Assembly: GCA_947626425.1 (NCBI GenBank)
Contig: CANQRX010000002.1
Location: 1 to 50,322, forward strand
Length of the DNA: 50,322 nt
Direction of reading: 5' to 3'
DNA from: an uncultured Bacilli bacterium
GTDB taxonomy: Bacteria; Bacillota_I; Bacilli_A; RF39; UBA660
Part shown: positions 13,952 through 47,938 of the stretch, piece after piece
Layout of the letters: the number at the start of each line of letters is the position of its first letter
How positions within the stretch are numbered: the stretch's first letter is position 1
Made by a program: the position numbers and the translations under genes
The notes under the pieces: generated by a model
What the model was told of the DNA's origin: nothing
Database searches by the model: none
What the model saw: only the letters and a program-made list of their open reading frames with translations

Positions 13952-14026
13952 ATTTTTAAATCTTATTTCTTTTAATAAAAAAGACATTAAAACATTTTTT
14001 GCTTTTGTTCGTTTTTAAAATGTTCA

Positions 14027-14055: not shown

Positions 14056-14090
14056 GATGATAATAGAGAAAAATAGTAAGGGATGAGGTC

Positions 14091-14768
14091 ATGAAAACAA
14101 AATATAAAATTTTATTAGGAATAATTTCTCTCGCGTTATTAGCTAGTTTATATATAGCTCAGTCTTATGCTTTATGGACTTTCACGGCCCCTCAAACTAC
14201 TACAAACAGTGTCAGTTCTGGTTGCTTTGATATAGAATACAGTGAAACAGCCAGTTCAACTTTGAATTTAACTCAGTCTTATCCTATAGATGACGCTCAA
14301 GCCTTAAGTAAAGAAACCCCATATACTTTTACAATTAAAAATAATTGTTCTATTAGTACTGAATATACTGTGACTTTAAATACATTAACTTCAAATACAT
14401 TAGATGATGCCAAAATTAAATATGCAATTGTGTCTGGAAGTAGCACTACTACAACTGGTAAAAAGTTATCTGAAGCCACGGCAAATGCTGATACTACAAA
14501 TTTTAATTTAGGTAGTACTTTAAAAAAATCTTATAAATTGGCTACAGGTGTATTAACGCAAAGTGGCTCTGTAACATTTAAGTTGTATTTATGGATCGAT
14601 GCTAGTGCCGGAAATGAAGTAATGAGTCAAAAATTTAATGCTGCTGTTTATGTTAACAATGTTCCAACTAATAAATCAGCAGCAAGTCCGACTATAAGTT
14701 CACCTAGTGTTGATGAAGGACCATCCTTTGAAGATGAAGTTCCTACTGATGAAAATGCTATTGAATAA
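14091..14768 (+). CDS. Secreted/anchored protein, paralog 3 of 3 (QSYALW signal end) with acidic C-terminal tail
   Basis: Same conserved blocks as paralogs 1 and 2, plus an extra SPSVDEGPSFEDEVPTDENAIE tail. Confidence 0.75.
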   Translation: MKTKYKILLGIISLALLASLYIAQSYALWTFTAPQTTTNSVSSGCFDIEYSETASSTLNLTQSYPIDDAQALSKETPYTFTIKNNCSISTEYTVTLNTLTSNTLDDAKIKYAIVSGSSTTTTGKKLSEATANADTTNFNLGSTLKKSYKLATGVLTQSGSVTFKLYLWIDASAGNEVMSQKFNAAVYVNNVPTNKSAASPTISSPSVDEGPSFEDEVPTDENAIE

Positions 14769-14885: not shown

Positions 14886-16520
14886 ATGAAATCAGTGTCA
14901 ATAGGAAACGATGATTTTAGTGATTTAATAAAAAGTAATAGTTATTATGTCGATAAAACTAATGCTATTGAAGAATTATTAAAAAATAATAAAAAAGTAG
15001 TCTTATATACAAGACCGCGAAGATTTGGTAAAAGTTTGTTTATATCAATGTTAGAACATTTTTTTGACATTGATGAATCTTGTAGTAACAAAGATTTATT
15101 TAAAGGATTATATATATCCAAAAGTCCATATTTTAGTGAGTTTGGTAGTTTCCCAGTTATTAGTTTAACTTTTAAAAATTTAAAACAAAATACTTATGAA
15201 AGTGTTTATGCTCAGTTTGTTGCTATAATAAAACAAATATATGTTGATAAAAATTATGTTTTTGAGGTTTTAGATGATTCCGAAAAAGATTTATTCAACG
15301 GAATCAAAAATGGAACAGTTACGATTGAAGAATATAAATTATCAATATTTCTTTTATCAAGATGGTTAGAAAGGTATCATCAAAGGAAAGTTGTAATTTT
15401 AATTGATGAATACGATGTTCCAATTCAATGTGGTTATTTAAAAGGCTTTTACGATGAAGTAATAGATTTAATCAGCAGTGTTTTTTCGGCTTGTTTAAAA
15501 ACCAATAATTCTTTAAAAATGGGAATATTAACTGGTGTTTTACGAGTAAGTAAAGAATCAATTTTCAGTGATTTAAATAATTTAAAAGTATATGATATGA
15601 TGAGCTTTCATTATCTTGAATCATTTGGGTTTACGGAATCAGAAACAAAAGAATTATTAGAATATTATGGTTTAGAATTAACAAGTGATGTTAAAAATTT
15701 TTATGATGGATATAGTATGAATGGAGTAAGTATATATAATCCTTGGAGTATTCTAAATTATGCTGATGAAAAAATTTTAAATTCGTATTGGATAAATACT
15801 TCGGGAAATGATTTAATAATAAAATTATTAAGTGAAACAAGTAAAGAAGTTAAAATCGACATTGAAAAATTAGCAACTGGAGAAAGTATTTCATTTACCT
15901 ATAATGATAAATTAACCTATTTAGATTTGGATAAAAAACAAAGTAAAAATAATATTTTAAACTTAATGTATGCTTCAGGTTATTTAACAATCGATCAAGT
16001 TATTGATGAAGCATTTCGAAAGTACAGCGTAAAGATACCTAATGAAGAAGTAAAAATATTTATATTAAAAATTATTAGTTATGCTTATGCAAATGATGTA
16101 ATAGATGAATACGTTAGTAATTTTGGGGAGGCTTTAAAAAATGATAATAAAGAAGAAATGGAAAAAAGTTTAAATAAAATGTTAGAAAGTATGTCATATA
16201 TGGTAACTTGCGACAACTTTTATCATGGATATATGTTAGGAATTTTTCAAGGCTTTTTAAGAGGACAATATATTGTCAAATCAAACCGAGAAGGAGGATT
16301 AGGAAGATTTGATGTATTAATTGAGAAAAAAGATCGAAATTTTGGCTGTATTTTTGAATTTAAAATAGCTGAGAAAGAAAGTGAAATGGAAAATTTAGCA
16401 AGCCTTGCTAAAAAGCAAATGAAAGAAAAAGAATATTACAAAGAATTACAATTAGACAAAGTTGAAAATATAAAAGAATATGCTTTAGTATTTTATGAAA
16501 AGAAATGTGTTGTTAGGTAA
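14886..16520 (+). CDS. Predicted AAA-ATPase (PF09820-like) with C-terminal PD-(D/E)XK nuclease domain (PDDEXK_9-like), copy 1
   Basis: N-terminus IGNDDFSDLIKSNSYYVDKT..YTRPRRFGKSLFISMLEHFF is the signature of the predicted AAA-ATPase family. C-terminus GGLGRFDVLIE..IFEFK fits a PD-(D/E)XK core. Confidence 0.8.
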   Translation: MKSVSIGNDDFSDLIKSNSYYVDKTNAIEELLKNNKKVVLYTRPRRFGKSLFISMLEHFFDIDESCSNKDLFKGLYISKSPYFSEFGSFPVISLTFKNLKQNTYESVYAQFVAIIKQIYVDKNYVFEVLDDSEKDLFNGIKNGTVTIEEYKLSIFLLSRWLERYHQRKVVILIDEYDVPIQCGYLKGFYDEVIDLISSVFSACLKTNNSLKMGILTGVLRVSKESIFSDLNNLKVYDMMSFHYLESFGFTESETKELLEYYGLELTSDVKNFYDGYSMNGVSIYNPWSILNYADEKILNSYWINTSGNDLIIKLLSETSKEVKIDIEKLATGESISFTYNDKLTYLDLDKKQSKNNILNLMYASGYLTIDQVIDEAFRKYSVKIPNEEVKIFILKIISYAYANDVIDEYVSNFGEALKNDNKEEMEKSLNKMLESMSYMVTCDNFYHGYMLGIFQGFLRGQYIVKSNREGGLGRFDVLIEKKDRNFGCIFEFKIAEKESEMENLASLAKKQMKEKEYYKELQLDKVENIKEYALVFYEKKCVVR

Positions 16521-16535
16521 AGGAGGGATAATATC

Positions 16536-18170
16536 ATGAAATCAGTGTCAATAGGAAACGATGATTTTAGTGATTTAATAAAAAGTAATAGTTATTATGT
16601 CGATAAAACTAATGCTATTGAAGAATTATTAAAAAATAATAAAAAAGTAGTCTTATATACAAGACCGCGAAGATTTGGTAAAAGTTTGTTTATATCAATG
16701 TTAGAACATTTTTTTGACATTGATGAATCTTGTAGTAACAAAGATTTATTTAAAGGATTATATATATCCAAAAGTCCATATTTTAGTGAGTTTGGAAGTT
16801 TCCCAGTTATTAGTTTAACTTTTAAAAATTTAAAACAAAATACTTATGATGAAGTATATGAACAGTTTGTGATGCTTATAGAAAAACTATATACAGAAAA
16901 AAGTTATGTTTTAGAAGTATTAGATGAAGATGAAAAAAATAAATTCAAAAGAATAAAAAGTGGTCAAGCAAAATATAGTGAATATCAAGATTCGTTATTT
17001 CAATTATCAATATGGTTAGAAAGGTATCATCAAAAGAAAGTTGTAATTTTAATTGATGAATATGATGCTCCTATTCAAAGTGGTTATTTGAATGGCTTTT
17101 ATGATAAGGTAATAAATTTAATTAGAAGTGTTTTTTCAGCTTGTTTAAAAACCAATAAATCTTTAAAGATGGGAGTATTAACCGGAGTTTTACGAGTAAG
17201 TAAAGAATCAATTTTCAGTGATTTAAATAATTTAAAGGTATATGATATGATGAGCCTTCATTATCTTGAATCATTTGGTTTTACGGAAAAGGAAACTAAA
17301 GAATTATTAGAATATTATGGTTTAGAATTAACAAGTGATGTTAAAAATTTTTATGATGGATATAGTATGAATGGAGTAAGTATATATAATCCTTGGAGTA
17401 TTCTAAATTATGCTGATGAAAAAATTTTAAATTCGTATTGGATAAATACTTCGGGAAATGATTTAATAATAAAATTATTAAGTGAAACAAGTAAAGAAGT
17501 TAAAATCGACATTGAAAAATTAGCAACTGGAGAAAGTATTTCATTTACCTATAATGATAAATTAACCTATTTAGATTTGGATAAAAAACAAAGTAAAAAT
17601 AATATTTTAAACTTAATGTATGCTTCAGGTTATTTAACAATCGATCAAGTTATTGATGAAGCATTTCGAAAGTACAGCGTAAAGATACCTAATGAAGAAG
17701 TAAAAATATTTATATTAAAAATTATTAGTTATGCTTATGCAAATGATGTAATAGATGAATACGTTAGTAATTTTGGGGAGGCTTTAAAAAATGATAATAA
17801 AGAAGAAATGGAAAAAAGTTTAAATAAAATGTTAGAAAGTATGTCATATATGGTAACTTGCGACAACTTTTATCATGGATATATGTTAGGAATTTTTCAA
17901 GGCTTTTTAAGAGGACAATATATTGTCAAATCAAACCGAGAAGGAGGATTAGGAAGATTTGATGTATTAATTGAGAAAAAAGATCGAAATTTTGGCTGTA
18001 TTTTTGAATTTAAAATAGCTGAGAAAGAAAGTGAAATGGAAAATTTAGCAAGCCTTGCTAAAAAGCAAATGAAAGAAAAAGAATATTACAAAGAATTACA
18101 ATTAGACAAAGTTGAAAATATAAAAGAATATGCTTTAGTATTTTATGAAAAGAAATGTGTTGTTAGGTAA
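16536..18170 (+). CDS. Predicted AAA-ATPase with C-terminal PD-(D/E)XK domain, copy 2
   Basis: Same length (544 aa) and motifs as copy 1. Residues 1-104 and about 256-544 are identical to copy 1. Confidence 0.8.
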   Translation: MKSVSIGNDDFSDLIKSNSYYVDKTNAIEELLKNNKKVVLYTRPRRFGKSLFISMLEHFFDIDESCSNKDLFKGLYISKSPYFSEFGSFPVISLTFKNLKQNTYDEVYEQFVMLIEKLYTEKSYVLEVLDEDEKNKFKRIKSGQAKYSEYQDSLFQLSIWLERYHQKKVVILIDEYDAPIQSGYLNGFYDKVINLIRSVFSACLKTNKSLKMGVLTGVLRVSKESIFSDLNNLKVYDMMSLHYLESFGFTEKETKELLEYYGLELTSDVKNFYDGYSMNGVSIYNPWSILNYADEKILNSYWINTSGNDLIIKLLSETSKEVKIDIEKLATGESISFTYNDKLTYLDLDKKQSKNNILNLMYASGYLTIDQVIDEAFRKYSVKIPNEEVKIFILKIISYAYANDVIDEYVSNFGEALKNDNKEEMEKSLNKMLESMSYMVTCDNFYHGYMLGIFQGFLRGQYIVKSNREGGLGRFDVLIEKKDRNFGCIFEFKIAEKESEMENLASLAKKQMKEKEYYKELQLDKVENIKEYALVFYEKKCVVR

Positions 18171-21221: not shown

Positions 21222-21250
21222 TTGAAAAAAGAAAGTTATTAACTTATAAT
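21222..21250 (+). promoter_or_regulatory. Sigma-A-type promoter TTGAAA-N17-TATAAT
   Basis: Read directly. Nearly identical to 46466-46494. Confidence 0.6.
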
Positions 21251-21280
21251 TTTAATAGAAAATAGGAAGGAAAAAGATAA

Positions 21281-22661
21281 ATGAAAATAGAAAATTATAA
21301 GTTAAAAACAAGTAAAAAAGCAAAAATATTGATTGGAAGTATGGTAGGAATAATGGCTCTAGGGGGGGGGGTATCTACTAAATAAAAGTTTAGGAAAATA
21401 CCAAGTCGAACAAAGTTTTCCCATAATGAATGGGAAAATTCAAGCAAACAGTGGTGATGTTTCAATCATTGCTATTAAAGTTGATGGAGCTGTAGTAGAT
21501 GAAATTCCAGCTAAAGGTTCAGGAAAATATTTTGAAAGTGCGGAATGTTCAAATGGAGCTACGGGATCATGGGATCGAACGAATTGGCAATTTTTATTAA
21601 ATACAACCAAAAAAACCAAATGTACATTAAATTTTACAACAACAAAAAGTACAACTGGTGAACAAAGTGGTGCAAGTAAAATGGAAGATTTATTATCTCA
21701 AGAAGAAGATAAAGGATCAGGAATAACTATTGTCAGTGATGATAATAACATTAGATATATTGGTCAAAATCCTAGTAACTATATTTATTTTAATTGTAAA
21801 GATAGTACAACTCAAAACGCCGAAAATTGTGAAACATGGCGAATAATAGGATTAATGGATGGAATAAAAACCAAAGCCGGAAAAACGGAAAGATTGTTAA
21901 AAATCATAAGAGAAAAATTACCTGTTTCTTTAAGTTGGGACTCATCTGCTTCTAGTGTAAATCAAGGCTATGGAGTAAATGAATGGAGTCAAGCAGATTT
22001 AATGACTGTCTTAAATGGCGATTATTTTAAAGGCCAAAAAGGAACTGATAAATGTTATAGTAGTTCTGGCGTATCAACAACAGACTGTCCAGATTGGATC
22101 CAGTATGGTTTAAAAAAATCAGCCCAAGATATGATCGAAGAAGTGGTTTGGAATACGGGAACGGCCGCAGTAACAGAAAACACTTGGGAAAAAGGAAATA
22201 TGCCAGTAGTTCAATATATATGGGAACGAAGTGATTTTACAGGAAAGCAATGTAATGGTGGAAGTTATTGTAACGACGATGTTCAAAGACAAACCACATG
22301 GGAAGGCAAAGTAGGTTTGATGTATCCATCGGACTATGGTTATGCCACCGATGGTGGGAAAGACCAAGTGAAAAGAATGCAATGTTTATATACACCATTA
22401 TATGATTGGAATGATAACAGTAATTGTTATAGTAATGATTGGCTATATGATAGTCAAAATTATCAATGGACAATGACTCCTGCGCCGTATTCTTCGTATG
22501 CTAGCGCTGTGTTCATTGTCCACGCAATCGGGCGTGTCTACTACCGCAATGCCTACAATGCTAACGCGGCTCGCCCCGTCGTTTATTTAAAGTCTTCGGT
22601 AAAAATTACTGGGGGGACAGGCTCTGATTCTGATCCATTTCAATTAAAATTAGAAGAATAA
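21281..22661 (+). CDS. Phase-variable surface protein with C-terminal lectin-like domain; currently frameshifted (OFF) at a G10 tract
   Basis: ATG 21281 encodes MKIENYKLKTSKKAKILIGSMVGIMALGGG, then stops at 21383-21385. With G9, the frame continues YLLNKSLGKYQVEQSFPIMNGKIQ.. into ORF 21426-22661. The C-terminal domain (WRIIGL, YPSDYGYAT, RPVVYLKS) is shared with 39851-41695 and 46537-47938. Confidence 0.7.
21362..21371 (+). repeat. Homopolymeric G10 tract inside signal-anchor codons
   Basis: Counted directly as 10 consecutive G in a roughly 30% GC genome. It encodes the GGG at the end of the TM helix. Confidence 0.9.
22478..22583 (+). other. DGR variable-region-like segment (GC-rich, A-poor) at the 3' end of 21281-22661
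   Basis: About 56% G+C by hand count. AAY/TAY codons are interspersed with A-free codons (..cgc aat gcc tac aat gct aac gcg gct cgc ccc gtc gtt). Confidence 0.45.
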
Positions 22662-32070: not shown

Positions 32071-35000
32071 ATGAAAAAGAAGTTAACAATATTTTTGTTA
32101 AGTTTAAGTTTATTTTTGGGTGTTTGTTTAAAAAATACCCAAGCTGCCGAGGTCTATGATCGGGTTAAAAGTGGATACAAAATATCTGGAACATTTACCA
32201 ATACAGGTATTAGTTATTTTCTCGAAGTAGGTTATAAATATGGTGCTCCTAGTACCGGTAGTTATAATGCTTATAAAAATGGCATTGATGGAATATTTAT
32301 ATGTATTTCACCAGATAAAGATGCTGGAACCTATTATAAAGCGGTTACCGAAGTTAACCCAGATTCACCATCTGTTAAAAATAAAAATACGCGTGCTTTT
32401 TATGTTGCTGTAATTAAGGCATATCAAATTATGGTTGACAGTGGGGAAATTACAACTAAAAAAAGTAATGGTCGCTATTCATATACTGACCGTCAAAAAT
32501 TCTTATTAATTGTTCGTTGGTTAGCAAGTAAATATGGATTATTAGATACTAGCCACCCAAGTAGTTCAACAACTCCGGCTGGTAACTATAAAAAATATGT
32601 TTATTCTGATAGAAGCAAATATTGGAATACGTCCAATTCAACTATTAAAAGAGCTGAAGCTGTAACTAAAGCTGCGATAAAAGTTGGAGATAAAATACTA
32701 AAAGGTTCAACTTACCAAAAACTTATTGATAATGGTGATGTTTGGGGCGCTAGATGGGAAAGTACTGCTCCAACTGTCGAAACCAATGCAAAGAAACCAA
32801 ATTTAGTAACTATAAAGTTTGATGTCAAAGCTAAAAACAGTATTCAAAAAATAAATTACAAAGATTTTAAAGTAGAATGTAATTATGGTTATAAGTGTAA
32901 AGATGTAACAATTAAGACTAAAAAGGAAACTACGAAAAAAGGTAAAGAAAAACAATACATAAGTGTAAGTATTGTTGTCGATACAACTAATGGTAAAAAA
33001 CATAAAGCTCAAAATGCTGGGCAACCATATGGAGTTGTTGTTAAAACTAATTTTTATGATTACCATGATTCATCTCATTTATTCTTATTTAATCCAACAG
33101 TTAGTACAAAACAAAAGATGTTACTAATTAGAGATTATAACCAATCAATGCAAATTGTTACTAAGTTTGTTCCAGAATGGGAAGATATTTGTTCTTGCCA
33201 AAAAGATAGCAACGGCAATTACACTGGAAAATATGAGTTGAAAACAATTGTTAATGGTGTTGTAAAAACCGAAGAATTTGGTTTTAACGATAAAAAAGCT
33301 AAAAAATATGATTGTCCTGATTCTTCAAAATGTGTTAGTGAACCTAATCCATCATGTCAAACACCAGATGAAAGTGATGATGGAAATTATCATTGTAAAG
33401 ATGGTGAAGTTTGTGACGAAGAAAAATACAAAGAAGACTGTGATACAGGTAAGAAACCATCATGTCAAACACCAGATGAAAGCGATGACGGAAAATATCA
33501 CTGCAAAGATGGCGAAGTTTGTGACGAAGAAAAATACAAAGAAGACTGTGATACAGGTAAGAAACCATCATGTCAAACACCAGATGAAAGCGATGACGGA
33601 AAATATCACTGCAAAGATGGCGAAGTTTGTGACGAAGAAAAATACAAAGAAGACTGTGATACAGGTAAGAAACCATCATGTCAAATACCAAGTGAAAGTG
33701 ATGATGGAAATTATCATTGTAAAGATGGTGAAGTTTGTGACAAAGATGAATATGAAGATGACTGTTTATGCCCTGAATTAAAGGATAAATGTGAAGAAAA
33801 TCCTGATGATCCTGCTTGCGGTGAATACAAGGAAAAATGTCCAAATTGTTCAGCAACGGTTACAGTTCCAAACAATTGTAATGATTTTGATGCTGAATCA
33901 ACAGTAGACGGTGTTATTAGCGATATTAATGAAACAGCAAGTAGTTGTAATCCAACAGCTAACTTAGTTAAAACCTGTGTAATTGATAAAAAGGATCAAG
34001 CTGGTTCAAGTTTTGAAGCAACCAATGAAATAAAAAATAACCCTTATTGTAAAGTATGGTGTAAAGAAAAATATGAATTCTCATTACCAACAGCAAAATA
34101 TACTCAAAGTGGTGGTTATTTCCAATTAACAATGAAAATAGCTGCTAAAAGAGATTGTTATGTAAGTGCAGCAGATGACCCAGATAATCCAATTGATAAG
34201 ACAAAATTCTTAAGTGATTTAAGTACTGCTGAAACTGCGGTTAAAAATGCTTATAACGAATATAGTAAATTAAACAATGATGCTAATTTATCTGCTTTAA
34301 ATTCTGCTAAAGAAAAAGTGGAAAGTATTATTAGTGATTTTAATAGTTGTTCAAATGGTTGGAGTAATAATTTCGTTTATAACCCAGAAATTGAATATGA
34401 TTATTACAATGACTATTTAACTAATAGTAAAGGAACATTTGAAAAAATTGAAGGAACCGATACAATGACTAGTGAAGATACTTATTGCTCTGGAGATACT
34501 GATGAAAGTTACAATTGTAAATCAGGTGCATCAAACACTATGCAAACTGAAACTCAAAGCTATGAAAATTGTGATGCTCAAGGATGTAGTGTTAAAACTG
34601 CTCAAATAAGTACAGCTAAATGGATTCAAAAAACTAAAATAGTTGCCAATGCTCAATATCAACCAAAAGAAAAATTCTCAACTTATACAAGTTATGGTAT
34701 AATAAAAATAGATGAACCTAGATGTAATGGTAAAGATTGCTTATATACAAGACTTCCAGATAGTTCATTACCTGTTCAATTAACAACTGGTAAAGGAGTA
34801 TTCCCATTCACATTTACATTTAAAAATATTGGTCAATCAAATACTGATAATAATTTAGGTCGTCTAATTGGTTCTGATAACAGTATTGTAAAAGCCTTTA
34901 ATGAATTACCTGATGAATACCGTTGTTCAAAAGACAATGCAACTGATGCATATGGTGGATATGTTTGTCATTACATTAACAACTGTGATGGATGTGACTT

Positions 35001-35589
35001 TGAATGTGTTGGTGACGATTGTAAGTTTGAAGATGAAGAAGAAAATTGCGAAGGTCCAACTTGTCCATTAACATGTGTAAACTGTGTATTTGATGGTCAA
35101 GAAGCAACTTATACCTTTAGAGCTGTGTCCCTTGCTAATTTATTCCCAAATGAATGTGATGAAAATTCTGATAGTAGTGAATGTCGTACAACCGGCTATA
35201 ACTGGGACGTTGGTGAAAAAGCTAGTTTAACTAAGAAAGCAATCCAAGAAGAAGGTAATAATATCTATATTGAACCAGAATATTCATATACAATGAATTC
35301 CTCACAACTAAGTGCTATTAGAGAATATAATCAAAAAGTTGGTTCATATTCTAATACCACAACTGGAGCATTCTTTAACAACGAACCAGCATTGAAATGC
35401 AATGTTGTTGAAATAAATGGAATTCAATATGAGGTTGAATGTTTATCTACATTCTTATCAAACGGAAATGGTAAATACTTTACCGAAAATAAACGAAATA
35501 CTGAATTTGAACTATGGTCAAATACAGAATATTGCTTAAGCGGTAGCTGTTTAGATCGTAAAAAAGGCGTAGGACCGTCTTGGAAGTAG
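32071..35589 (+). CDS. Giant secreted Cys-rich protein 2 (1172 aa), paralog of 27402-31745
   Basis: GGGGGA RBS and signal peptide (..CLKNTQA/AEV). Shares the N-terminal domain, one C-x-C...C-P module and the entire Cys-rich C-terminal region (..YCKVWCKEKYEFSLPTAKYTQSGGYF.., ends GVGPSWK) with protein 1. Contains four 36-aa tandem repeats. Confidence 0.8.
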   Translation: MKKKLTIFLLSLSLFLGVCLKNTQAAEVYDRVKSGYKISGTFTNTGISYFLEVGYKYGAPSTGSYNAYKNGIDGIFICISPDKDAGTYYKAVTEVNPDSPSVKNKNTRAFYVAVIKAYQIMVDSGEITTKKSNGRYSYTDRQKFLLIVRWLASKYGLLDTSHPSSSTTPAGNYKKYVYSDRSKYWNTSNSTIKRAEAVTKAAIKVGDKILKGSTYQKLIDNGDVWGARWESTAPTVETNAKKPNLVTIKFDVKAKNSIQKINYKDFKVECNYGYKCKDVTIKTKKETTKKGKEKQYISVSIVVDTTNGKKHKAQNAGQPYGVVVKTNFYDYHDSSHLFLFNPTVSTKQKMLLIRDYNQSMQIVTKFVPEWEDICSCQKDSNGNYTGKYELKTIVNGVVKTEEFGFNDKKAKKYDCPDSSKCVSEPNPSCQTPDESDDGNYHCKDGEVCDEEKYKEDCDTGKKPSCQTPDESDDGKYHCKDGEVCDEEKYKEDCDTGKKPSCQTPDESDDGKYHCKDGEVCDEEKYKEDCDTGKKPSCQIPSESDDGNYHCKDGEVCDKDEYEDDCLCPELKDKCEENPDDPACGEYKEKCPNCSATVTVPNNCNDFDAESTVDGVISDINETASSCNPTANLVKTCVIDKKDQAGSSFEATNEIKNNPYCKVWCKEKYEFSLPTAKYTQSGGYFQLTMKIAAKRDCYVSAADDPDNPIDKTKFLSDLSTAETAVKNAYNEYSKLNNDANLSALNSAKEKVESIISDFNSCSNGWSNNFVYNPEIEYDYYNDYLTNSKGTFEKIEGTDTMTSEDTYCSGDTDESYNCKSGASNTMQTETQSYENCDAQGCSVKTAQISTAKWIQKTKIVANAQYQPKEKFSTYTSYGIIKIDEPRCNGKDCLYTRLPDSSLPVQLTTGKGVFPFTFTFKNIGQSNTDNNLGRLIGSDNSIVKAFNELPDEYRCSKDNATDAYGGYVCHYINNCDGCDFECVGDDCKFEDEEENCEGPTCPLTCVNCVFDGQEATYTFRAVSLANLFPNECDENSDSSECRTTGYNWDVGEKASLTKKAIQEEGNNIYIEPEYSYTMNSSQLSAIREYNQKVGSYSNTTTGAFFNNEPALKCNVVEINGIQYEVECLSTFLSNGNGKYFTENKRNTEFELWSNTEYCLSGSCLDRKKGVGPSWK
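33349..33780 (+). repeat. In-frame tandem repeat, 4 x 108 bp (36 aa: PSCQTPDESDDG-N/K-YHCKDGEVCDEEKYKEDCDTGKK)
   Basis: Units start at 33349, 33457, 33565 and 33673. Units 2 and 3 are identical. Units 1 and 4 share a different set of synonymous variants, and unit 4 diverges at its 3' end. Confidence 0.9.
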
Positions 35590-38974: not shown

Positions 38975-39762
38975 TGTACTGGGAAATAATTACCTTAGCA
39001 ATTATAATATTGTTTGTTTTAAATTATACCGGAAGGATTTCTGCTTCTCGTTTCGTTAGCGATAATGAAGTAATCTTTCAAAAATTAAAAGAAAAAGATT
39101 GGGATTTTTATGTAAAGATTAGATATGGAGATACGGTAAACCCAGACTTCTTATTTACCAAAAGAGTTCAAAACGGGTTAATAATAATTGTCATCATGCT
39201 TTGCTTCTTTATTTCTAATTTATCTTATGTAACCATTTTGTTTAGTTTAATTGCCGGCTATTTAGTATTTAAAATGCAATATAATAATTTAAAGAATTAT
39301 TATAAAAGACATTTACATGAAATAGACGCCATGTTACCACATTATTTAAAAAGTTTGGAAATTTTAATTCAACATTACACCGTTCCAGTAGCTTTAGGAA
39401 AATCAATTGAAGATGCCCCAGCTATATTTAAAGACGGTTTACAAGAATTAATTAGTCAAATCAACAGTGGGGATAGTTCAATTAATCCTTATATGCAATT
39501 CGCCAAAGTTTATCCAGTTCGTGATTCAATGCGAATGATGCGTTTATTATATCGTTTATCATTAGGACGACAAGAACATAAACAAGAACAATTAATTACT
39601 TTCTCAAGAACCATTTCTAATTTACAACAAAAAGCAAGAGAAATAAAATACAAAGAACGTCTTGACAAAATGGAAAAGAAAACCATGCAAATGCTAGTTG
39701 TAACCGGTGTTGGGGTAATGATATTACTAGTTTTAGCGGTTTTAATGATGATGAATATGTAA
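38974..39762 (+). CDS. TadC-like platform protein (T2SS-F-type membrane protein)
   Basis: 262 aa. Start overlaps the previous stop (TAATG). Same TM - cytoplasmic domain - TM topology as the preceding gene. Confidence 0.5.
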   Translation: MYWEIITLAIIILFVLNYTGRISASRFVSDNEVIFQKLKEKDWDFYVKIRYGDTVNPDFLFTKRVQNGLIIIVIMLCFFISNLSYVTILFSLIAGYLVFKMQYNNLKNYYKRHLHEIDAMLPHYLKSLEILIQHYTVPVALGKSIEDAPAIFKDGLQELISQINSGDSSINPYMQFAKVYPVRDSMRMMRLLYRLSLGRQEHKQEQLITFSRTISNLQQKAREIKYKERLDKMEKKTMQMLVVTGVGVMILLVLAVLMMMNM

Positions 39763-39794
39763 GACAGCTTTTTATAAGTTGTTTTTATTTTAAA

Positions 39795-39826
39795 TTGACA
39801 AACGGGGGGGGGGTATATGATAAAAT
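39795..39826 (+). promoter_or_regulatory. Putative promoter whose -35/-10 spacer contains a G10 tract
   Basis: TTGACA (39795-39800), then AAC plus G10. Candidate -10 elements are TATGAT (39816-39821, spacer 15) or extended TG-A-TAAAAT (39818-39826, spacer 20). Confidence 0.5.
39804..39813 (+). repeat. Homopolymeric G10 tract (intergenic)
   Basis: Counted directly. The in-frame stop at 39827-39829 shows it is not part of the 39851 ORF. Confidence 0.9.
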
Positions 39827-39850
39827 TAATTAAGAGTAAGGTGTTGGAAT

Positions 39851-41695
39851 ATGGAAAAGAAAACAAATACTTTTAATTATTTTATTGTTGTATTAATTAT
39901 TTTAGTTATTGCTTTTTTAGGAATAACGTATGCTTATTGGAATGTAACAATTAATCAAGAAAATAAAAATGTAGTAAAATCAGTTTGTTTAAAAGTAAGT
40001 ATGGCTAAAGATGAAAATGAAATAAGTCTACCTAAAGCTATGCCCATCAGTGACGAAGAAGGTGTAGCTTTAGCACCATATACCTTTAGCATTAAAAATA
40101 CTTGTAATGATAATGCAAGTTACCAAATAAATTTAGAGTCTTTATCCAAAATAAATGGAACAGAAGAAATACCTTTTAATGATAGATTAGCACCCAAATA
40201 TGTTCGCTTTAAATTAAATAAAACCGAAAAACCAGATGAAGGAACAATGTTATTATTAAGTAATACGGATGAAGTAACCCCAATTTTAGATAATACCTAT
40301 AGTTCCCATAAATTAATGACCGGATATTTAAGTCCAAGTGAAACCAAAGATTTTGAATTAAGATTATGGATAGATGAAGATGCTGATGAAGGAGCGATGA
40401 ATAAAACATTTGCCAGTAAAGTAACCATAACCAATGCTTATTTAGAGGAAGATAAAATACCACCAACAGCCACTTTAGATTTAGCGGTTTGTGATAATCT
40501 AATTACAGCTACCGGAAGTGGTCAAGCAAATAAAGACAAAACAATTTCTAAATATGAATATAAATTAGATGATGATGATTGGTATGAAACAACAAGTACT
40601 GAACCAAAAACATTTACAGTTGAAGATTATGGCTTACATAAAATAAGTTTAAGAGTAACGGATAATACCAATAATGTAAGTGGTGAAGTAATAAAAGAAG
40701 TTGAAATAAAAAAACCAGAAACTGTAAATATTAAAGGTAAAGATATTCCAGTAGCAACCTGTGGAGATGGATTATATCGAGTGGAACATAAAGATGGCCC
40801 TGATAACTGGAAAGAAACAGAATATCGTTTTGCCGGAGTAAACTATACTAATGATAGCACTTCATATGTCCATAATTATGTAAGCTTTAATGAAGAAATT
40901 TGGCGAATTATAGGATTAGTAAATGTTAAAACAGAAGATGGAAAATATGACCAACGATTAAAAATTGTCCGAACTGATGGAGTAGGTAACCAAAAGAATT
41001 TTGGCAGTTATCAATGGAATAATACAGCTAATAGTGACTGGACGAAATCATCATTAAAAAATATGTTAAACGGAATTTACTATACTAGTGAAAATGGAGA
41101 TTGTTATACAACAAGTAGTACAGCAACCCAATGTGATTTTAGTCAAGAAAGTACTACTTTACCAAATGGTTTAAATGAAACAGCCCGAGGAATGGTCGAT
41201 GATGGAGTAATCTGGAATTTAGGAGGAACAGCAGCATATCAAACTACAACAGTAACCCAATTTTATAATTATGAACGAGGAACGACAGTGTATAATGATA
41301 GACCAAAGGAATGGACAAAAACCAATGATGCAAGTGAACATAAAGGAGTAGGCTTAATTTATCCAAGTGATTATGGGTATGCCACGAATGGTGGAACCTC
41401 GGGAAGAGATTATTGTTTTAAAAAAGCACTATACAGTTGGGCCGGAAGTGGTTATAAAGAAGAATGTGCCAATAAAGATTGGTTAAAGCCAAGTAGTAGC
41501 TATTTATGGACGATTACGCCGAATTCGGGCAGTTCCCACGCTGCGTTCAGTGTCCACTCGTCGGGGTTTGTCATCGGCAACTACAGCGTCGCGAACTCCT
41601 ACGTCGTCTGGCCCGTCGTGTATCTGAAATCGAATATTCAGATTTCCGGCGGTGATGGGACTTTTGAAAATCCCTTTACTCTTGAATTAGATTAA
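39851..41695 (+). CDS. Fusion surface protein: TasA-like-signal N-terminal domain + Ig-like linker + lectin-like C-terminal domain with DGR-VR-like end
   Basis: N-terminus ..IILVIAFLGITYAYWNV. Residues 1-195 align with the 12.5-14.8 kb paralogs (PISD, PYTFSIKNTC, FELRLWIDEDA). Residues about 200-614 align with 46537-47938, with long identical DNA stretches. Confidence 0.8.
   Translation: MEKKTNTFNYFIVVLIILVIAFLGITYAYWNVTINQENKNVVKSVCLKVSMAKDENEISLPKAMPISDEEGVALAPYTFSIKNTCNDNASYQINLESLSKINGTEEIPFNDRLAPKYVRFKLNKTEKPDEGTMLLLSNTDEVTPILDNTYSSHKLMTGYLSPSETKDFELRLWIDEDADEGAMNKTFASKVTITNAYLEEDKIPPTATLDLAVCDNLITATGSGQANKDKTISKYEYKLDDDDWYETTSTEPKTFTVEDYGLHKISLRVTDNTNNVSGEVIKEVEIKKPETVNIKGKDIPVATCGDGLYRVEHKDGPDNWKETEYRFAGVNYTNDSTSYVHNYVSFNEEIWRIIGLVNVKTEDGKYDQRLKIVRTDGVGNQKNFGSYQWNNTANSDWTKSSLKNMLNGIYYTSENGDCYTTSSTATQCDFSQESTTLPNGLNETARGMVDDGVIWNLGGTAAYQTTTVTQFYNYERGTTVYNDRPKEWTKTNDASEHKGVGLIYPSDYGYATNGGTSGRDYCFKKALYSWAGSGYKEECANKDWLKPSSSYLWTITPNSGSSHAAFSVHSSGFVIGNYSVANSYVVWPVVYLKSNIQISGGDGTFENPFTLELD
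41519..41620 (+). other. DGR variable-region-like segment
   Basis: About 62% G+C and 14% A by hand count. See the codon comparison with 47759-47860 in the findings. Confidence 0.55.
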
Positions 41696-41766
41696 ATTGT
41701 CTTTTCGACAAAATTGTGTATATTTTTTGATCTTTAATCCACACTATAAGTGGAAAGGAGATCTCT

Positions 41767-42519
41767 ATGTTAAAAGAAGTAAAAGCATTTTTTCTTACTT
41801 TAATTGTCGGAATAGTCGCTTTAACTCTAAATGTTAATGCTGCATCAACTGCTACAGTAAATTCTCAAGCTGATTTAAAAGAAGCCTTAGATGATGAAAG
41901 TATTACCACAATTATTTTAGGTAGCGATATTGATACTACGGAAAAAATTAATATTGTTCGACCTGTTACAATTGATGGTCAAAATCATACTATTCGTTAT
42001 GTAGGAACTTTTGGTGATGAAGGAAGTAGAGACAATACTGTTTGGTCTGGAATTTATGTTTTACAATTTTATAAAACAACTGGAACCTTAAAAGACATTA
42101 AATTAACAGGCGGGAATGCTGGCCTTTTACTTAATGGTTCAGAAGTAACTTTTGAAGGAACAATTGATGTTTCTGGTAATGGTTTTGGCGGTATTGAATT
42201 AGGCCAAGGTGCTAATGTAACCGAAACTCCTCATTTAAAATTAGAAGGCGATGCCGAAATTGTTAACACAACCGAAGCCGAAGATGCTCCAACATTATGG
42301 GTTCCTGATGATACTAAAACCGCAATTTTAGAAAGTAATGGAATGCAAGAAACAATATCAGCTGGCGAAGAATTAACTATTATAGAAGCCCTAAGTTATT
42401 TTAATGTCCCAACTGAAAATCCTCAAACAGCCGATTTTAACAAATTATCAATTGTTTTAGGATTTATGAGCTTATTTATCTTTGCTTTAACTATGTCAAA
42501 GATTATGTTAAGAAAATAA
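41767..42519 (+). CDS. Secreted protein with class-B-sortase-type sorting signal (NPQTA + TM + basic tail)
   Basis: GGAGA RBS and signal peptide ..LTLNVNA/AST. The C-terminus NPQTADFNKLSIVLGFMSLFIFALTMSKIMLRK has the motif at 42418-42432. Confidence 0.7.
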   Translation: MLKEVKAFFLTLIVGIVALTLNVNAASTATVNSQADLKEALDDESITTIILGSDIDTTEKINIVRPVTIDGQNHTIRYVGTFGDEGSRDNTVWSGIYVLQFYKTTGTLKDIKLTGGNAGLLLNGSEVTFEGTIDVSGNGFGGIELGQGANVTETPHLKLEGDAEIVNTTEAEDAPTLWVPDDTKTAILESNGMQETISAGEELTIIEALSYFNVPTENPQTADFNKLSIVLGFMSLFIFALTMSKIMLRK

Positions 42520-42576
42520 GGTATTGAAATTAACTTTCGGTTCTTCCAAAAGTTTCCGAAAAGGCTGAATATTCGA

Positions 42577-42602
42577 AGTAGATAGAAATATCTGCTTTTT
42601 TA
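42577..42602 (+). terminator. Rho-independent terminator closing the long + strand gene array
   Basis: AGTAGATA-GAAA-TATCTGCT 8-bp stem (one G-U pair) followed by T6. Confidence 0.6.
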
Positions 42603-42839
42603 CGTTGATACAATAAATAGAAAATTTTAATTCATTCTTATGGAACCAAATATTTTAAAGTTCAGGGGTACGTAAAAGAAGAATTCAAGATACTCTATTT
42701 TTATAAAAGTGTTTATATTGAATTAAGGGAATGTAGCTTCCAAACTTAAAAATTTTTACATAAAAAATTCCGTTTGCAAGAAAAAAATTAAAAAAAGTTC
42801 TTCCAGAAACTTTCGAGAGAACCTAAATATAAGTTATAT

Positions 42840-43190: not shown

Positions 43191-44009
43191 TTAGCTTTTG
43201 ATTTCTTTTTTTATTAGTTTCGCATGTAAAACAACGCGTTCATTACCAATTCCATCCTTGCAAGTTGATAAGGTTAAAACTTTATCATTGGTATTTAAAC
43301 TCGTTTGAAAATCATAAATGCTTCGATTTTTAATAGTTGTTAAAAATTGTTGATAATCATTCTCAGTTAAAAAATGAGTTGTTAAATAATACGTTTCACT
43401 AGGAATTACATAAACCGAAAAAACTTGAAAAATCATATTCGTTTGGGGAGTAGATATTTTAACTATATGGTTTTGTAAGTCGCTTAACCAATTTTCCTCT
43501 AAGGTATATTTTAAACTACCAAACATGCTTTCATCATTGCGGCGGTGCCCATAAATAATCGAGTTATTATTTAGATAATCCAAATTATTTCGATAATCAG
43601 AAAAAATCCAACCGGCTTTATTTTCCGTTTTATCAAATGAATGGGTTAAATAAAAATCATTATTTTTGGTTTTAACAATAGGGTAATTAATAAGAGTATT
43701 AGGTATATTTATCCAACCTACCGTGTCGTTATTCTGACTTTTTAACTCTTCAAAATTAATATTAAGATAGGGAATATCAACATAATTATAATAACTATCC
43801 GAAATATCATTCGGTGGATTAACTAAATCAGCAGTATAATCTTCTTTTAAAAATTCATCTAAATAATTTATTTGAATTTCCTTAATCAATTCTTTATTTT
43901 TTCTATTATCTAATTCCCACATGGCATACTGATAAAAAAAATAAATTGTTAAACTAAAAGTTAAAATCATGACAATATATAACTTATTTTTCTTTTTTCT
44001 TGGTTCCAT
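43191..44009 (-). CDS. srtB: Class B sortase
   Basis: N-terminal TM anchor, GWINIPNT..INYPIV, YGHRR, catalytic TLSTC motif, and a conserved downstream Arg (ERVVLHAKL). Confidence 0.85.
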   Translation of the reverse strand: MEPRKKKNKLYIVMILTFSLTIYFFYQYAMWELDNRKNKELIKEIQINYLDEFLKEDYTADLVNPPNDISDSYYNYVDIPYLNINFEELKSQNNDTVGWINIPNTLINYPIVKTKNNDFYLTHSFDKTENKAGWIFSDYRNNLDYLNNNSIIYGHRRNDESMFGSLKYTLEENWLSDLQNHIVKISTPQTNMIFQVFSVYVIPSETYYLTTHFLTENDYQQFLTTIKNRSIYDFQTSLNTNDKVLTLSTCKDGIGNERVVLHAKLIKKEIKS

Positions 44010-44063: not shown

Positions 44064-44384
44064 TTAGTTTAAAAAAGAAATTTTAGTTATTTGTTCAAAA
44101 TAAAGGGAAGTATGATCATCAAAATATATTTGTTTGTTTTGAAAATTAAAGTGATCAATAATTCCTAATTTTCGATAAAACTGATTTTTCCAAAAATAAA
44201 TTATTTGGATTTTTTCTTTCGTGTGATAAGCTTTTTGAATATTTTGTTCAAGATTTTCTTTGTCATCTTCACTTAAAATCGATAATTTTTGTTGATTTCT
44301 TTTTTCTTTTAATTCCTGTAATACTTCGCTTGCAGGTACTACGGCATTAAAGGGTTGCCACTTAACTTCGCCACGATTACTCAT
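44064..44384 (-). CDS. YolD-like protein
   Basis: AAAGGTGG RBS. MSNRGEVKWQPFNAV.. and its size and position downstream of a UmuC-like polymerase match the Bacillus yolD/yqzH arrangement. Confidence 0.7.
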   Translation of the reverse strand: MSNRGEVKWQPFNAVVPASEVLQELKEKRNQQKLSILSEDDKENLEQNIQKAYHTKEKIQIIYFWKNQFYRKLGIIDHFNFQNKQIYFDDHTSLYFEQITKISFLN

Positions 44385-45639
44385 AATGACCACCTTTCTT
44401 TTTATTACGTTCTTTAATCGTTGAATTGCTTAAAAGACTTGTTGCTTTTAAAACACTATTTTTGCCAAACTGTTGATGAATTTGATCTAAAACCAAATCT
44501 AAATCATTTTGTTTTTCTTGCTTTTCTAAAGGATTAAATAAATCTAATTGAATACCTTGATACTTCGATAATTTTCCTAAAGCAATACTAACTTTTCTTA
44601 TTGGTGTATTTTCTTCATAATAACGATCAAAAATAATTTTGCAAACTTGAAATAAACTTTCCGTCGAGCGAGTAGGTAAATCTAATTTTGTGGAATGATA
44701 AAAACCTCCTCCGATATTTAAGGAATAACTAATTCCTAAATAAATTAAATTAGTTTCTAAATTTTTACTTCGAAGCCTTTTCGTTAACACCTCTAACATT
44801 TCTTCAATTATTAAAAATATTTCTTCATTGTAATAATCCTTAAAAAGGACTTGACTATGACTAATTGATTTTTCTTTTGGAGCATGGTTAAAATCGCTAA
44901 TTAAAGAGTTATCTATCCCATTCGCATGTTCCCATAATTCCTGACCAATAACACCAAACTTATTTTTTAAAAGCTCAGGGTTATAGTTTGCTAAATCCCC
45001 AACCGTTATTATTCCTAAATTATTAAGCCGTTTTTCCATTCGTGATCCAATTCCCCACATTTTGGAAAGGGGAGTGATTGGCCAAAGTTTAGAAGGCACA
45101 TCATTATAAGTCCATTTAGCTATGCCATTTTTATATTTTTTCGCTTCGACATCCATAGCTATTTTAGCTAAAAGTAAATTAGGTCCAATTCCACAAGTCG
45201 CAGTTAAACCTGTTTTTGCTTCAATCGTTTGTAAAATTTTTAATGCTAGCTGTTCATCCGTTAATTGGTAATAATCTAAATAAGTTGTAACATCTAAAAA
45301 ACATTCATCAATCGAATAAATATGTAAGTCATTTTCGCTAACAAAGTCTAAATAAATGTTAATAACTTCTTTACTTTTTTGGGTATATAAACCCATTCGT
45401 GGCGGAACAATTTGATATTTTATTTCTTTGGGAATATTATAAAGCCTAGTCCGAGAAGGAATATTTTGAGCTTTTAAAAAAGGCGTTATCGCTAAAGTAA
45501 TGGCACCCTTACCTTGTTTATCATTCGCAACGACTAAGGCAGTTGTAAAAGGATTTATTCCTCGTTCGACACATTCACAAGAAGCAAAAAAACTTTTTAA
45601 ATCAATACATAAAATATGGCGATTACTTTTTTGGTCCAT
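44377..45639 (-). CDS. Y-family DNA polymerase (UmuC/DinB-like, UvrX/YqjW type)
   Basis: GGAGGTG RBS before MDQKSNRHILCIDLKSFFASCE (catalytic D-x-K-x-F-F-A), SIDECFLDVT, and an HhH region. Confidence 0.85.
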   Translation of the reverse strand: MDQKSNRHILCIDLKSFFASCECVERGINPFTTALVVANDKQGKGAITLAITPFLKAQNIPSRTRLYNIPKEIKYQIVPPRMGLYTQKSKEVINIYLDFVSENDLHIYSIDECFLDVTTYLDYYQLTDEQLALKILQTIEAKTGLTATCGIGPNLLLAKIAMDVEAKKYKNGIAKWTYNDVPSKLWPITPLSKMWGIGSRMEKRLNNLGIITVGDLANYNPELLKNKFGVIGQELWEHANGIDNSLISDFNHAPKEKSISHSQVLFKDYYNEEIFLIIEEMLEVLTKRLRSKNLETNLIYLGISYSLNIGGGFYHSTKLDLPTRSTESLFQVCKIIFDRYYEENTPIRKVSIALGKLSKYQGIQLDLFNPLEKQEKQNDLDLVLDQIHQQFGKNSVLKATSLLSNSTIKERNKKKGGHYE

Positions 45640-45744
45640 TAAAAACACCTCCCAAACTTTTGTTCAATAACATTATAACAAAATTAGAAGGAAATACAAT
45701 TGACAAAAATTAACAATTTTGGGAAGATAAAACAGGTGAAGAAA

Positions 45745-46465: not shown

Positions 46466-46494
46466 TTGAAAAAAAGAAGTTATTAACTTATAAT
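46466..46494 (+). promoter_or_regulatory. Sigma-A-type promoter TTGAAA-N17-TATAAT
   Basis: Read directly. Part of the 5' cassette shared with 21220-21430. Confidence 0.6.
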
Positions 46495-46536
46495 TTTAAG
46501 TAGAAAAACTAGGTAAAAAATGAAAGGAAAAAGAAA

Positions 46537-47938
46537 ATGAAAATTGATAATTATAAGTTAAAAAACAGAAAAAAAGCAAAAATTTTAATAGGAAGTATGG
46601 CCGGAATAATAGCCCTAGGGGGGGGGGTATATATTAAGTAGAAGTTATGGAAAATACCAAGTAGAACAAAGCTTTCCCATAATGGAAGGCCAAATAAAAA
46701 TTAGAAAAATAACAGTAGATTTAAGTTTAGAACCTTGTGATGATACAATTTTAGCTACAACAGAAGTAACCCCAGCAGATAATATTAAAAAGTATGAATA
46801 TCAAATTGACAGTGAAAGTTGGAAAGAAGGTTCTGCTACACAGAATTTTATTGTACCGTCGAGAGGGCATCATACAGTAAAAGTTAAAGTAACTGCGGGA
46901 TCAAAAACAGCTGAAACAAGTAAAGAGATAGATATGCCAGCCTCAGTAACCGTAGATATCTCTGGAAAAGCAATTCCACTTGTATCATGTGATCCAAATG
47001 GATTATATAAAGTCGAACATAACGAAGCGGATGTTGATGAAGGATTTAGCCATGAAGAATATCGTTATGCGGGAGTAAATTATACTGATGCAGATACACC
47101 ATATGTTCATAATTATGTAAAATTTAATGAAGAAAAATGGCGAATCATCGGATTAGTGAATGTAAAAACTGGAGAAGGCGCCTATGACCAACGATTAAAA
47201 ATCGTGCGAACTAGTGGAGTAGGTAACCAAAATAATTTTGGAAGTTATTATTGGAATAATAAAAGTAAAAATGATTGGACAAGTTCATCATTAAAAAATA
47301 TGTTAAACGGAATTTACTATAATAGTGGAAGTGGAAGTTGTTATACAACAAGTATTACAGCAACCCAATGTGATTTTAATTCTGAAAGTGGAACTTTACC
47401 AAAAGGATTAAGTCAAGAAGCTCGAGAAATGGTAGATGGAGAAGTAACATGGAATTTAGGAGGAACAAATGCTAATACTACTTCTACTTCTACAGTAACC
47501 CAATTTTATAATTATGAGCGAGGAACGACAGTGTATAGTAATCGACCAACGGAATGGACAAAAACCAATGATGCAAGTGAACATAAAGGAGTAGGCTTAA
47601 TTTATCCGAGTGATTATGGGTATGCCACGAATGGTGGAACCTCGGGAAGAGATTATTGCTTTTCAGAAGCATTATTTAAATGGGATACAGGAGATTATAA
47701 AACAAACTGTTCAAGTAATGATTGGTTAAAATCAAGTGGTTTAGTGTGGACGATTACGCCGGATTCGGGCAAATCCGGCAATGCGTTCTATGTCAACTCG
47801 TCGGGGTCTGTCGACGGCCGCTTCAGCGTCATTTACTCCCGAGTCGTCTGGCCCGTCGTATATCTGAAATCGAATGTTAAAATTATTGATGGAGATGGCA
47901 CTTTTCAAAATCCGTACATCTTATCTGTTCAAAATTAA
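46537..47938 (+). CDS. Phase-variable surface protein with Ig-like and lectin-like domains; currently frameshifted (OFF) at a G10 tract
   Basis: ATG 46537 encodes MKIDNYKLKNRKKAKILIGSMAGIIALGGG, then stops at 46639-46641. With G9, the frame continues YILSRSYGKYQVEQSFPIMEGQIK.. into ORF 46682-47938. Confidence 0.7.
46618..46627 (+). repeat. Homopolymeric G10 tract inside signal-anchor codons
   Basis: Counted directly. Confidence 0.9.
47759..47860 (+). other. DGR variable-region-like segment
   Basis: Same frame and length as 41519-41620. All 20 invariant codons are shared, and differences are confined to 14 codons. Confidence 0.55.

Follow-up and report, generated by a model that had tools for sequence, protein, structure and literature searches.

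What does a run of ten guanines do immediately upstream of a gene in a genome as poor in G and C as this one, and could the length of the run set the expression of that gene? The window, by which we mean the whole stretch of 50,322 nt that was analysed, comes from an uncultured Bacilli bacterium, and direct reading of its sequence places the run (G10, tract B hereafter) at 39804-39813, 3 nt after a TTGACA hexamer and upstream of an ORF that we call gene B. An earlier note on this DNA had read the surrounding elements as a promoter whose spacing depends on the length of the tract. On re-reading, all of the elements that it named (TTGACA, AAC, G10, TATGAT at a spacing of 15 nt and TG-A-TAAAAT at a spacing of 20 nt) proved to be exactly placed. 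The layout of the region is as follows.

39795-39800, plus strand: TTGACA, a perfect consensus -35 hexamer by sequence, with TTGAC kept across the aligned cassettes of related loci
39801-39803, plus strand: AAC, read from the sequence between TTGACA and the tract
39804-39813, plus strand: G10 homopolymer inside the promoter spacer, the proposed hypermutable element (sequence, shuffles and contig L006)
39816-39821, plus strand: TATGAT, an alternative -10 hexamer (spacer 15 nt at G10, 17 nt at G12)
39818-39826, plus strand: TG-A-TAAAAT, an extended -10 and the most likely -10 (spacer 20 nt at G10, 17 nt at G7); by sequence its parts are TG at 39818-39819, A at 39820 and TAAAAT at 39821-39826
39838-39843, plus strand: AAGGTG, the ribosome-binding site of gene B, 7 nt before the ATG
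39851, plus strand: ATG of gene B, a 614-aa ORF by sequence

The window has a GC content of 28.9%, and it holds three G10 runs against an expectation of 0.00 in 100 dinucleotide-preserving shuffles; beyond these three, no G or C run longer than 6 nt occurs in it. Each of the three runs sits at the 5' end of a gene whose product has the C-terminal domain of one protein family, and the window contains no further gene of this kind beyond these three (A, B and C). Contingency loci carry repeats longer than composition predicts, and such repeats are present here. The repeats of contingency loci are also placed where a change in length alters expression, typically at surface-protein genes, and by position the tracts of A, B, C and their relatives would lie at such places. 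The intergenic sequence of an independent ENA contig (L006, sample ERZ27249329) is identical to that of the window, G10 included, and since the tract recurs there with identical flanks it is not an assembly artefact. Several contigs do end 15-65 nt from a tract, as might be expected if such runs arose in sequencing or assembly, for example from poly-G read tails. Against this, tract B is internal with unique sequence on either side, it is identical in independent samples, and equivalent tracts occupy equivalent functional positions in many assemblies produced by different pipelines, so that the artefact reading is effectively excluded. Tract B is a real, non-random feature.

The plus strand of the 50 kb has only 14 copies of TTGACA, which makes a copy exactly 3 nt from tract B unlikely to have arisen by chance. 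The spacer of the gene B promoter equals 10 plus the number of G's, as tabulated from G5 to G14, and the earlier claim that neither spacing is optimal at G10 agrees with a standard promoter scan allowing spacers of 16-18 nt, which does not call the gene B promoter. The same scan lists TTTACA-17-TAAAAT at 39621-39649, within the gene upstream of tract B; between the hairpin described below and the ATG of gene B it found no other promoter match scoring at least 10/12. We would like to note that -10-like hexamers mean little by themselves in DNA of 29% GC and gain weight only where the layout is conserved in relatives; the flanking of tract B by a -35 and a -10 is accordingly read from its sequence and conservation. 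Every aligned cassette keeps TTGAC and, at the -10, the pattern TA.A.T; this makes TGA-TAAAAT, rather than TATGAT, the likely -10 of gene B. TATGAT was considered for this role and judged fortuitous, as no -10-like hexamer stands at the equivalent offset in homologous cassettes and its TG serves the extended -10. The earlier note had either gain or loss of 2-3 G bringing one of the two hexamers to 17 nt. The loss, toward G7-G8, is what we would predict as well, but the gain would rely on TATGAT at G12, which is without counterpart in the homologous cassettes.

An in-frame stop at 39827-39829 makes tract B non-coding for gene B, and with that stop and no upstream start bearing a ribosome-binding site, the tract does not have the form of a translational (frameshift) switch. 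Nor does it have the form of a leader switch of the Pil1 type, as it lacks both a leader ORF bearing a ribosome-binding site and a hairpin; the 37 nt from the tract to the ATG are hairpin-free. Inspection of the sequence revealed no dyad symmetry at tract B, and an Rfam scan of the whole window retrieved one tRNA only and no known RNA element at the tract. When the exact 21-mer of the upstream flank was looked up across genome contigs, only two chance matches were returned, both in unrelated Clostridia promoters.

The window, which encodes EzrA, ThiI, DusB, a Y-family polymerase, RecG and a class B sortase, is a piece of chromosome from a low-GC Firmicute, and its proteins have their relatives in gut metagenome-assembled genomes deposited as 'Bacilli bacterium'. 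Upstream of tract B lies an operon for a T2SSE-type ATPase, a DUF5411 protein, a protein that weakly matches CpaB/RcpC, and two membrane proteins that match no family. Its description as 'Tad-like', which the earlier note had used for the core of the operon, is plausible but only partly supported, and is based on the T2SSE ATPase, the weak match to CpaB/RcpC and DUF5411. The features on either side of gene B are the following.

39760-39762, plus strand: TAA stop of the upstream 262-aa gene (TadC-like), from the sequence
39761-39785, plus strand: terminator-like hairpin with a 10-bp stem and a U-rich tail, directly after the stop of the TadC-like gene
39851-41695, plus strand: gene B, 614 aa, with an N-terminal membrane helix, beta-sandwich modules and the C-terminal family domain
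41767-42519, plus strand: gene of a 250-aa secreted protein with a signal peptide, a Pectate_lyase_5 adhesive domain and an NPQTA sorting signal
42575-42604, plus strand: terminator-like hairpin followed by U6 (-10.4 kcal/mol, z = -1.77)
43191-44009, minus strand: class B sortase gene, near the gene of the 250-aa protein

The hairpin at 39761-39785 has a predicted energy of -8.4 kcal/mol (z = -2.68; 2 of 200 shuffles fold equally well) and is probably the end of the upstream operon; clearer terminators stand at the equivalent place in the related contigs L007 and L008. The gene that follows the TadC-like gene differs among relatives, being a glycosyltransferase gene in L007 and a set of small pilin-like genes in L016. 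With a variable gene in this position and a terminator-like hairpin in between, gene B is a variable add-on that needs a promoter of its own. The earlier note had the tract uncouple gene B from the operon upstream, and the terminator-like hairpin before the -35 supports this; the hairpin is weak, however, and gene B may be transcribed by read-through from the Tad-like operon.

Downstream, the NPQTA signal of the 250-aa protein is followed by a hydrophobic stretch and a basic tail, and with a class B sortase gene nearby the earlier identification of this protein as a sortase substrate is supported. No convincing terminator was found between gene B and the 250-aa gene, which are possibly co-transcribed, and the hairpin at 42575-42604 is the likely end of the unit formed by the two. 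A further hairpin (41729-41763), which belongs to a fold of -17.7 kcal/mol (z = -2.3), takes up in its pairing the AAAGGAG that serves the 250-aa gene as ribosome-binding site, so translation of the 250-aa protein may be regulated or coupled. Elsewhere in the window, the minus strand at 44064-45648, between B and C, encodes a Y-family polymerase (DNA polymerase IV or UmuC-like) and a YolD-like protein. Y-family polymerases cause frameshifts in homopolymer runs; the placement of this one may be a coincidence. Just upstream of the Tad-like genes, a 1172-aa ORF (32071-35589) contains a cysteine-rich 36-aa repeat, encoded at 33349-33765 by a 108-nt unit present 3.9 times with 93% matches. Two tandem 544-aa paralogues lie at 14886-18170, and the first of them, when scanned, was found to have AAA-ATPase_like and PDDEXK_9 nuclease domains.

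The C-terminal domain of the gene B protein is distantly like DUF6273, and for this protein Pfam gave only sub-threshold hints of PKD and DUF6273. By tblastn it consists of two modules, as the earlier note had it in calling gene B a fusion: three small tandem ORFs at 12491-14768 are the counterpart of residues 12-206, and gene C is that of residues 206-614. The tandem ORFs (204, 208 and 225 aa) share 27-28% identity with residues 12-206 of gene B and themselves retrieved no known family matches. An AlphaFold model of the gene B protein (pLDDT 85.7) shows an N-terminal helix, beta-sandwich modules and the C-terminal domain, and a fold search of this model against the PDB yielded only generic Ig/FnIII-like beta-sandwich matches. 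'Surface protein' is a fair description of the product. The term 'adhesin', given to it in the earlier note, is unproven, there being no family match and only these generic Ig-like ones. We also considered a SipW/TasA-type signal peptide at the N-terminus (GITYAYW) and dropped it for want of HMM support.

Searched by homology, gene B has more than 1,000 homologues; one of them, a paralogue, is the window ORF at 46682-47938, and by tblastn exactly three genes in the window (A, B and C) carry the C-terminal domain of the family. Gene B itself is strongly allelic: compared over 39830-41665 of the window, the version in contig L003 (sample ERZ27249337) has 84.7% DNA and 79% protein identity to it, while flanking contigs from that sample match the window at 99.7-100% identity. 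A divergent gene amid near-identical flanks suggests diversifying selection or recombination among paralogues. No contig on record was found to encode gene B or its closest orthologues P0003 and P0004, and the contig encoding P0002 begins 24 nt before the ATG, so that the position of the tract is absent from it. A metagenome search for relatives with the single gene B protein gave none; an alignment-based search found the 80 loci discussed below.

The other two G10 runs of the window are placed differently with respect to their genes.

21222-22661, plus strand: paralogue A, with promoter TTGAAA-17-TATAAT at 21222-21250, ATG at 21281 and G10 at 21362-21371
46466-47938, plus strand: paralogue C, with promoter TTGAAA-17-TATAAT at 46466-46494, ATG at 46537 and G10 at 46618-46627

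In both, G10 falls in the codons of the membrane anchor (...ALGGG...), whereas gene B keeps its own anchor helix after the ATG and has the tract upstream of it. With G10, the reading frames of A and C each stop after 34 codons; with G9 or G12 they would run to 459 or 460 aa in gene A and to 466 or 467 aa in gene C. Judged from their reading frames, A and C are classic translational contingency switches, both currently off. When the versions of A and C restored by G9 or G12 were looked up by exact match, none was retrieved, and no 'on' allele is documented; tract C is also G10 in an independent contig (L029). That G10 breaks the frames of A and C makes a contingency-locus reading of tract B much more likely.

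For comparison we assembled, by an alignment-based contig search, 80 metagenome loci encoding family members (about 360 kb, 30% GC); such loci are found in many human gut metagenomes. These loci contain twelve tracts of G9-G11 (five G9, five G10 and two G11), and all 12 lie on the coding strand, either no more than about 190 nt ahead of a family gene or within its opening codons, with no G9-G11 tract anywhere else in the 80 loci. TAT directly follows 11 of 15 tracts, all three window tracts included. Counting that of window B, eight promoter cassettes have the layout TTGACA-N3-G insert-N7-TAnAAT or, in L081, a near-identical one.

Window B: TTGACA-AAC-G10-TATATGA-TAAAAT, spacer 20 nt
L036: TTGACA-GTC-G9-TATCTGT-TATAAT, spacer 19 nt
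L067: layout as in L036 but with G10, spacer 20 nt
L038: TTGACA-GTC-G10-TATTTTG-TATAAT, spacer 20 nt
L039, interrupted tract: TTGACA-GAT-GGGAGGGGGG-TATGTGA-TATAAT, spacer 20 nt
L102, interrupted tract: TTGACA-CTC-GGGGGAGAG-TATCTGC-TATAAT, spacer 19 nt
L047: TTGACA-GTC-GGAGGGG-TATATGC-TATAGT, spacer 17 nt
L081, a close variant: TTGACG-G8-N10-TATAAT, spacer 18 nt

Aligned with one another, the eight keep TTGAC and the TA.A.T pattern of the -10 without a change, while their flanking sequences differ from lineage to lineage. A perfect TTGACA stands at the fixed 3-nt offset in all but one of the 8; N7 followed by TGnTAtAAT, as in window B, is found in L036, L067, L102, L047 and L039; and the G inserts measure 7, 9, 9, 10, 10, 10 and 10 nt, plus the G8 after TTGACG, giving spacers of 17-20 nt. 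The L036 group (L036:1380-1400; L067, L102, L047) has in addition a second extended -10 promoter, TGTTATAAT, which is independent of the tract and lies about 95 nt downstream of it. In the loci encoding P0109 (L113-L119), the place of the distal promoter, the one with the tract, is taken by an IS110 element, and the proximal promoter alone is left.

The conserved layout bears on the idea that tract B is a non-functional relic, that is, a G(n)TAT block recombined from the 5' coding region of a paralogue into the neighbourhood of chance hexamers. The TAT after 11 of the 15 tracts would be expected of such a block, and gene B is a two-module mosaic whose alleles differ strongly between strains. 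Yet TTGACA-N3-tract-N7-TGnTAtAAT, or a near-identical arrangement, recurs in several divergent lineages, and no rival promoter match of at least 10/12 lies between the hairpin and the ATG; we hold a relic to be quite improbable.

Further tracts of the family sit outside promoter spacers. In four leader-type cases (L062:206-371, L069:963-1134 and 2623-2794, L073:156-322) a short ORF that has a strong ribosome-binding site (MNRCLTKLTVCKL-GGG...) contains the tract. In the frame that G9 or G12 would give, this ORF runs into a conserved 19-bp hairpin with U7 just before the ribosome-binding site of the family gene; with G10 or G11, the lengths observed, it ends 50-67 nt sooner. L109:568-726 lacks the tract and has the long leader frame fixed. 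A covariation test on the leader-type hairpin was uninformative, as the stem is nearly invariant. By its sequence the arrangement looks like a poly-G version of the Streptococcus gallolyticus Pil1 attenuation switch. A coding-type tract as in A and C is found in L068, with interrupted versions in a second L068 copy and in L066. Lastly, the G9 tracts L057:66-74, L110:41-49 and L107:3397-3405, upstream of family genes, adjoin GTTAAC...GTTAAC inverted repeats and may form a switch in the spacing between an activator site and a promoter; in these three loci a candidate promoter lies at or just downstream of the G9 tract.

No length variation was seen at tract B, which is G10 in the window and in L006, the two assemblies covering it; contigs L006 and L029, about 99.95-99.96% identical to the window and at about 3x coverage, make a weak test of length variation. 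Homologous cassettes elsewhere do vary in length with conserved flanks. L036 has G9 and L067 has G10 in one sample, within flanks that are 94% identical, and interrupted variants of 7-10 nt occur as well. Among the leader-type tracts, the tandem copies in L069 have G11 and G10, L062 has G10 and L073 has G11. Of the phase- or level-variation promoter proposed in the earlier note, the kind of element is supported by the conserved layout and its insert of 7-10 nt, but variation at tract B itself was not seen. Contigs L003, L006, L028, L057, L081 and L110 end 15-65 nt from a G tract or from its expected position, which is suggestive only, of length heterogeneity or of poor reads through G runs.

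These comparisons also speak to whether the G-rich block might be a fixed promoter element or binding site that does no meaningful switching. Tract B is G10 in both assemblies that cover it, and the interrupted inserts of L039 and L102 keep both the G-richness and the length of the pure ones, as a fixed element would. On the other hand, pure G9-G11 runs in genomes of low GC content, here 29-30%, are intrinsically slippage-prone, the length differs between near-identical cassettes, and the same G(n)TAT block breaks reading frames within the family, where it makes sense only as a switch or as decay. A fixed element appears improbable to us, if less so than a relic.

Where the effect of a tract depends on the reading frame, it is off in nine of nine cases, five of them coding (A, C, two in L068 and L066) and four of the leader type; under equal use of the three frames this would have a probability of (2/3)^9, about 0.026. 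Spacers of 19-20 nt are found in six of the eight cassette lineages, including the interrupted L102 (19 nt) and L039 (20 nt). Going by these sequences, the family acts as a group of contingency genes, most of them off in the consensus population.

With moderate confidence, we therefore favour for tract B a slippage switch in a promoter spacer like those of porA and tp0126, as its position and conservation suggest. The tract would be a hypermutable repeat in the spacer of gene B's own sigma-70-type promoter (TTGACA with TGA-TAAAAT). Slipped-strand mispairing during replication would add or remove G's, and each change would shift the distance between -35 and -10. The altered spacing would then set the level of transcription of gene B, and probably of the NPQTA-protein gene too, independently of the Tad-like operon, from a start that we place near 39833, about 7 nt after TAAAAT. 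The usual rule for promoter spacers is 17 +/- 1 nt. We infer that expression depends on tract length, with the promoter predicted to be strongest at G7-G8 (17-18 nt); at G10 (20 nt), as observed, it would be low or off and depend only on the extended -10. Tract B would be one of three G10 switches acting on one family, with A and C acting by coding frameshift.

Some observations count against this spacer-switch reading or would soften it. Promoter hexamers are easy to find in AT-rich DNA. The interrupted, presumably stable tracts of 19-20 nt spacers (L102, L039) indicate that a rule by which only 17 nt works may be incomplete, although these copies may be locked in a low or off state. An extended -10 might drive transcription wherever the -35 lies, in which case the effect of length could be modest or none. 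The same observations lend some weight to a real switch that does not operate through -35/-10 spacing at all, and acts instead through the binding or phasing of a regulator, through melting or DNA shape, or through the transcribed 5' leader. For such a switch, spacers of 19-20 nt dominate even among interrupted tracts, the extended -10 could work without a -35, other loci of the family use the tract differently (in a leader ORF before a terminator, or beside GTTAAC repeats), and poly-G promoters in which a spacing mechanism was ruled out have been described (PMC7864442). What argues the other way is the invariant TTGAC, with TTGACA at a fixed 3-nt offset in all but one divergent cassette; its persistence at a fixed offset in divergent sequences points to selection on the -35. 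Tract B moreover has no leader ORF, no terminator before the gene and no dyad symmetry through which such a switch might act. A non-spacing switch seems to us rather unlikely, and we retain the spacer switch as the preferred reading.

Looking across the family, its members may carry the module in three positions: the promoter spacer (B, L036, L067, L038), a leader ORF before a terminator (L062, L069, L073) and anchor codons (A, C, L068). We offer only tentatively, as something short of an even bet, the wider proposal that one portable G(n)TAT slippage module in these three regulatory positions, with members switching independently and mostly off, provides combinatorial surface variation.

If the tracts do switch, widespread uncultured gut Bacilli would vary a large surface-protein family stochastically, and their encounters with host IgA and phages would be affected. 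They would then have a combinatorial system comparable to those of Campylobacter, Neisseria and Mycoplasma in abundant commensals of human and animal guts, for which none has been described, and apparent pseudogenes of the family in metagenome-assembled genomes may be switched off rather than dead. Assemblies may also break at the G tracts. The cassettes, with spacers of 17-20 nt around pure and interrupted inserts, offer a natural series on the spacer rules of a Gram-positive extended -10 promoter. Phase variation by homopolymer slippage is textbook material for Neisseria, Haemophilus, Campylobacter, Helicobacter, Treponema and Mycoplasma; for gut commensals of the Firmicutes/Bacilli that have a cell wall there is, to our knowledge, hardly any record of it. 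In the literature we found no description of poly-G switching in these uncultured gut Bacilli or in the gene B family.

Several known systems resemble this locus in part. In Mycoplasma hyorhinis, a poly-A run in the promoter spacer reportedly switches each of the variable surface-protein (vlp) genes independently. Window B is like vlp in having a homopolymer in a promoter spacer and a surface-protein family, and the vlp host is low-GC and related to the Bacilli. Unlike vlp, with its poly-A, lipoproteins and wall-less host, window B has poly-G, and only one of the three local members is of the promoter type, the other two being of the coding-frameshift type. For Neisseria meningitidis opc, an effect of tract length other than through spacing is said to have been proposed.

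Two experimentally tested genes, N. meningitidis porA and Treponema pallidum tp0126, have poly-G in the spacer from -35 to -10 and are best expressed at 17 nt (PMC7864442), and in window B a G tract is likewise found between the -35 and -10 of a surface-protein gene. In contrast to those hosts, that of the window is an uncultured low-GC gut Bacilli member with a Gram-positive-type wall (sortases, EzrA). Most cassettes, window B included, stand at 19-20 nt instead of the 17-nt optimum, and an extended -10 is present. The T. pallidum genes tprE/G/J and tprL have promoter poly-G of 7-12 nt, of which 8 or fewer are permissive and 9-10 are off, with most of the population off; tprL is on with 8 G and off with 10 G (PMC7864442). 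The tpr genes are like window B in forming a paralogous surface-protein family, and the states predicted for window B (G7-G8 on, G10 off) resemble theirs. The tprL tract overlaps the -10 region; spacing was ruled out as its mechanism, and a regulator, DNA shape or promoter melting has been argued to be involved (PMC7864442). This is unlike window B, where the tract lies cleanly between the hexamers.

Among walled bacteria, S. gallolyticus Pil1 is switched by GCAGA repeats in a leader peptide together with a terminator (PMC3894217). The leader-type loci L062, L069 and L073 would be like Pil1 in that the length of the leader ORF decides whether ribosomes reach the hairpin, and differ in having a poly-G repeat; tract B differs more, having neither leader ORF nor terminator. 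In Bifidobacterium breve UCC2003, an intragenic G tract lies in sortase-dependent pilus genes, the reference is off, and productive lengths are enriched in vivo (PMC9187656). That walled gut commensal, with a G tract at a surface locus and an off reference, parallels A and C; unlike tract B, its tract is intragenic and acts on translation, in a high-GC actinobacterium. The mostly-off consensus seen across the family appears to match what is reported for the T. pallidum tpr genes and the B. breve pilus genes. The promoter-spacer mechanism is thus already known, from porA, opc, tp0126, tpr and vlp, and it is the host group and the gene family that are new for it.
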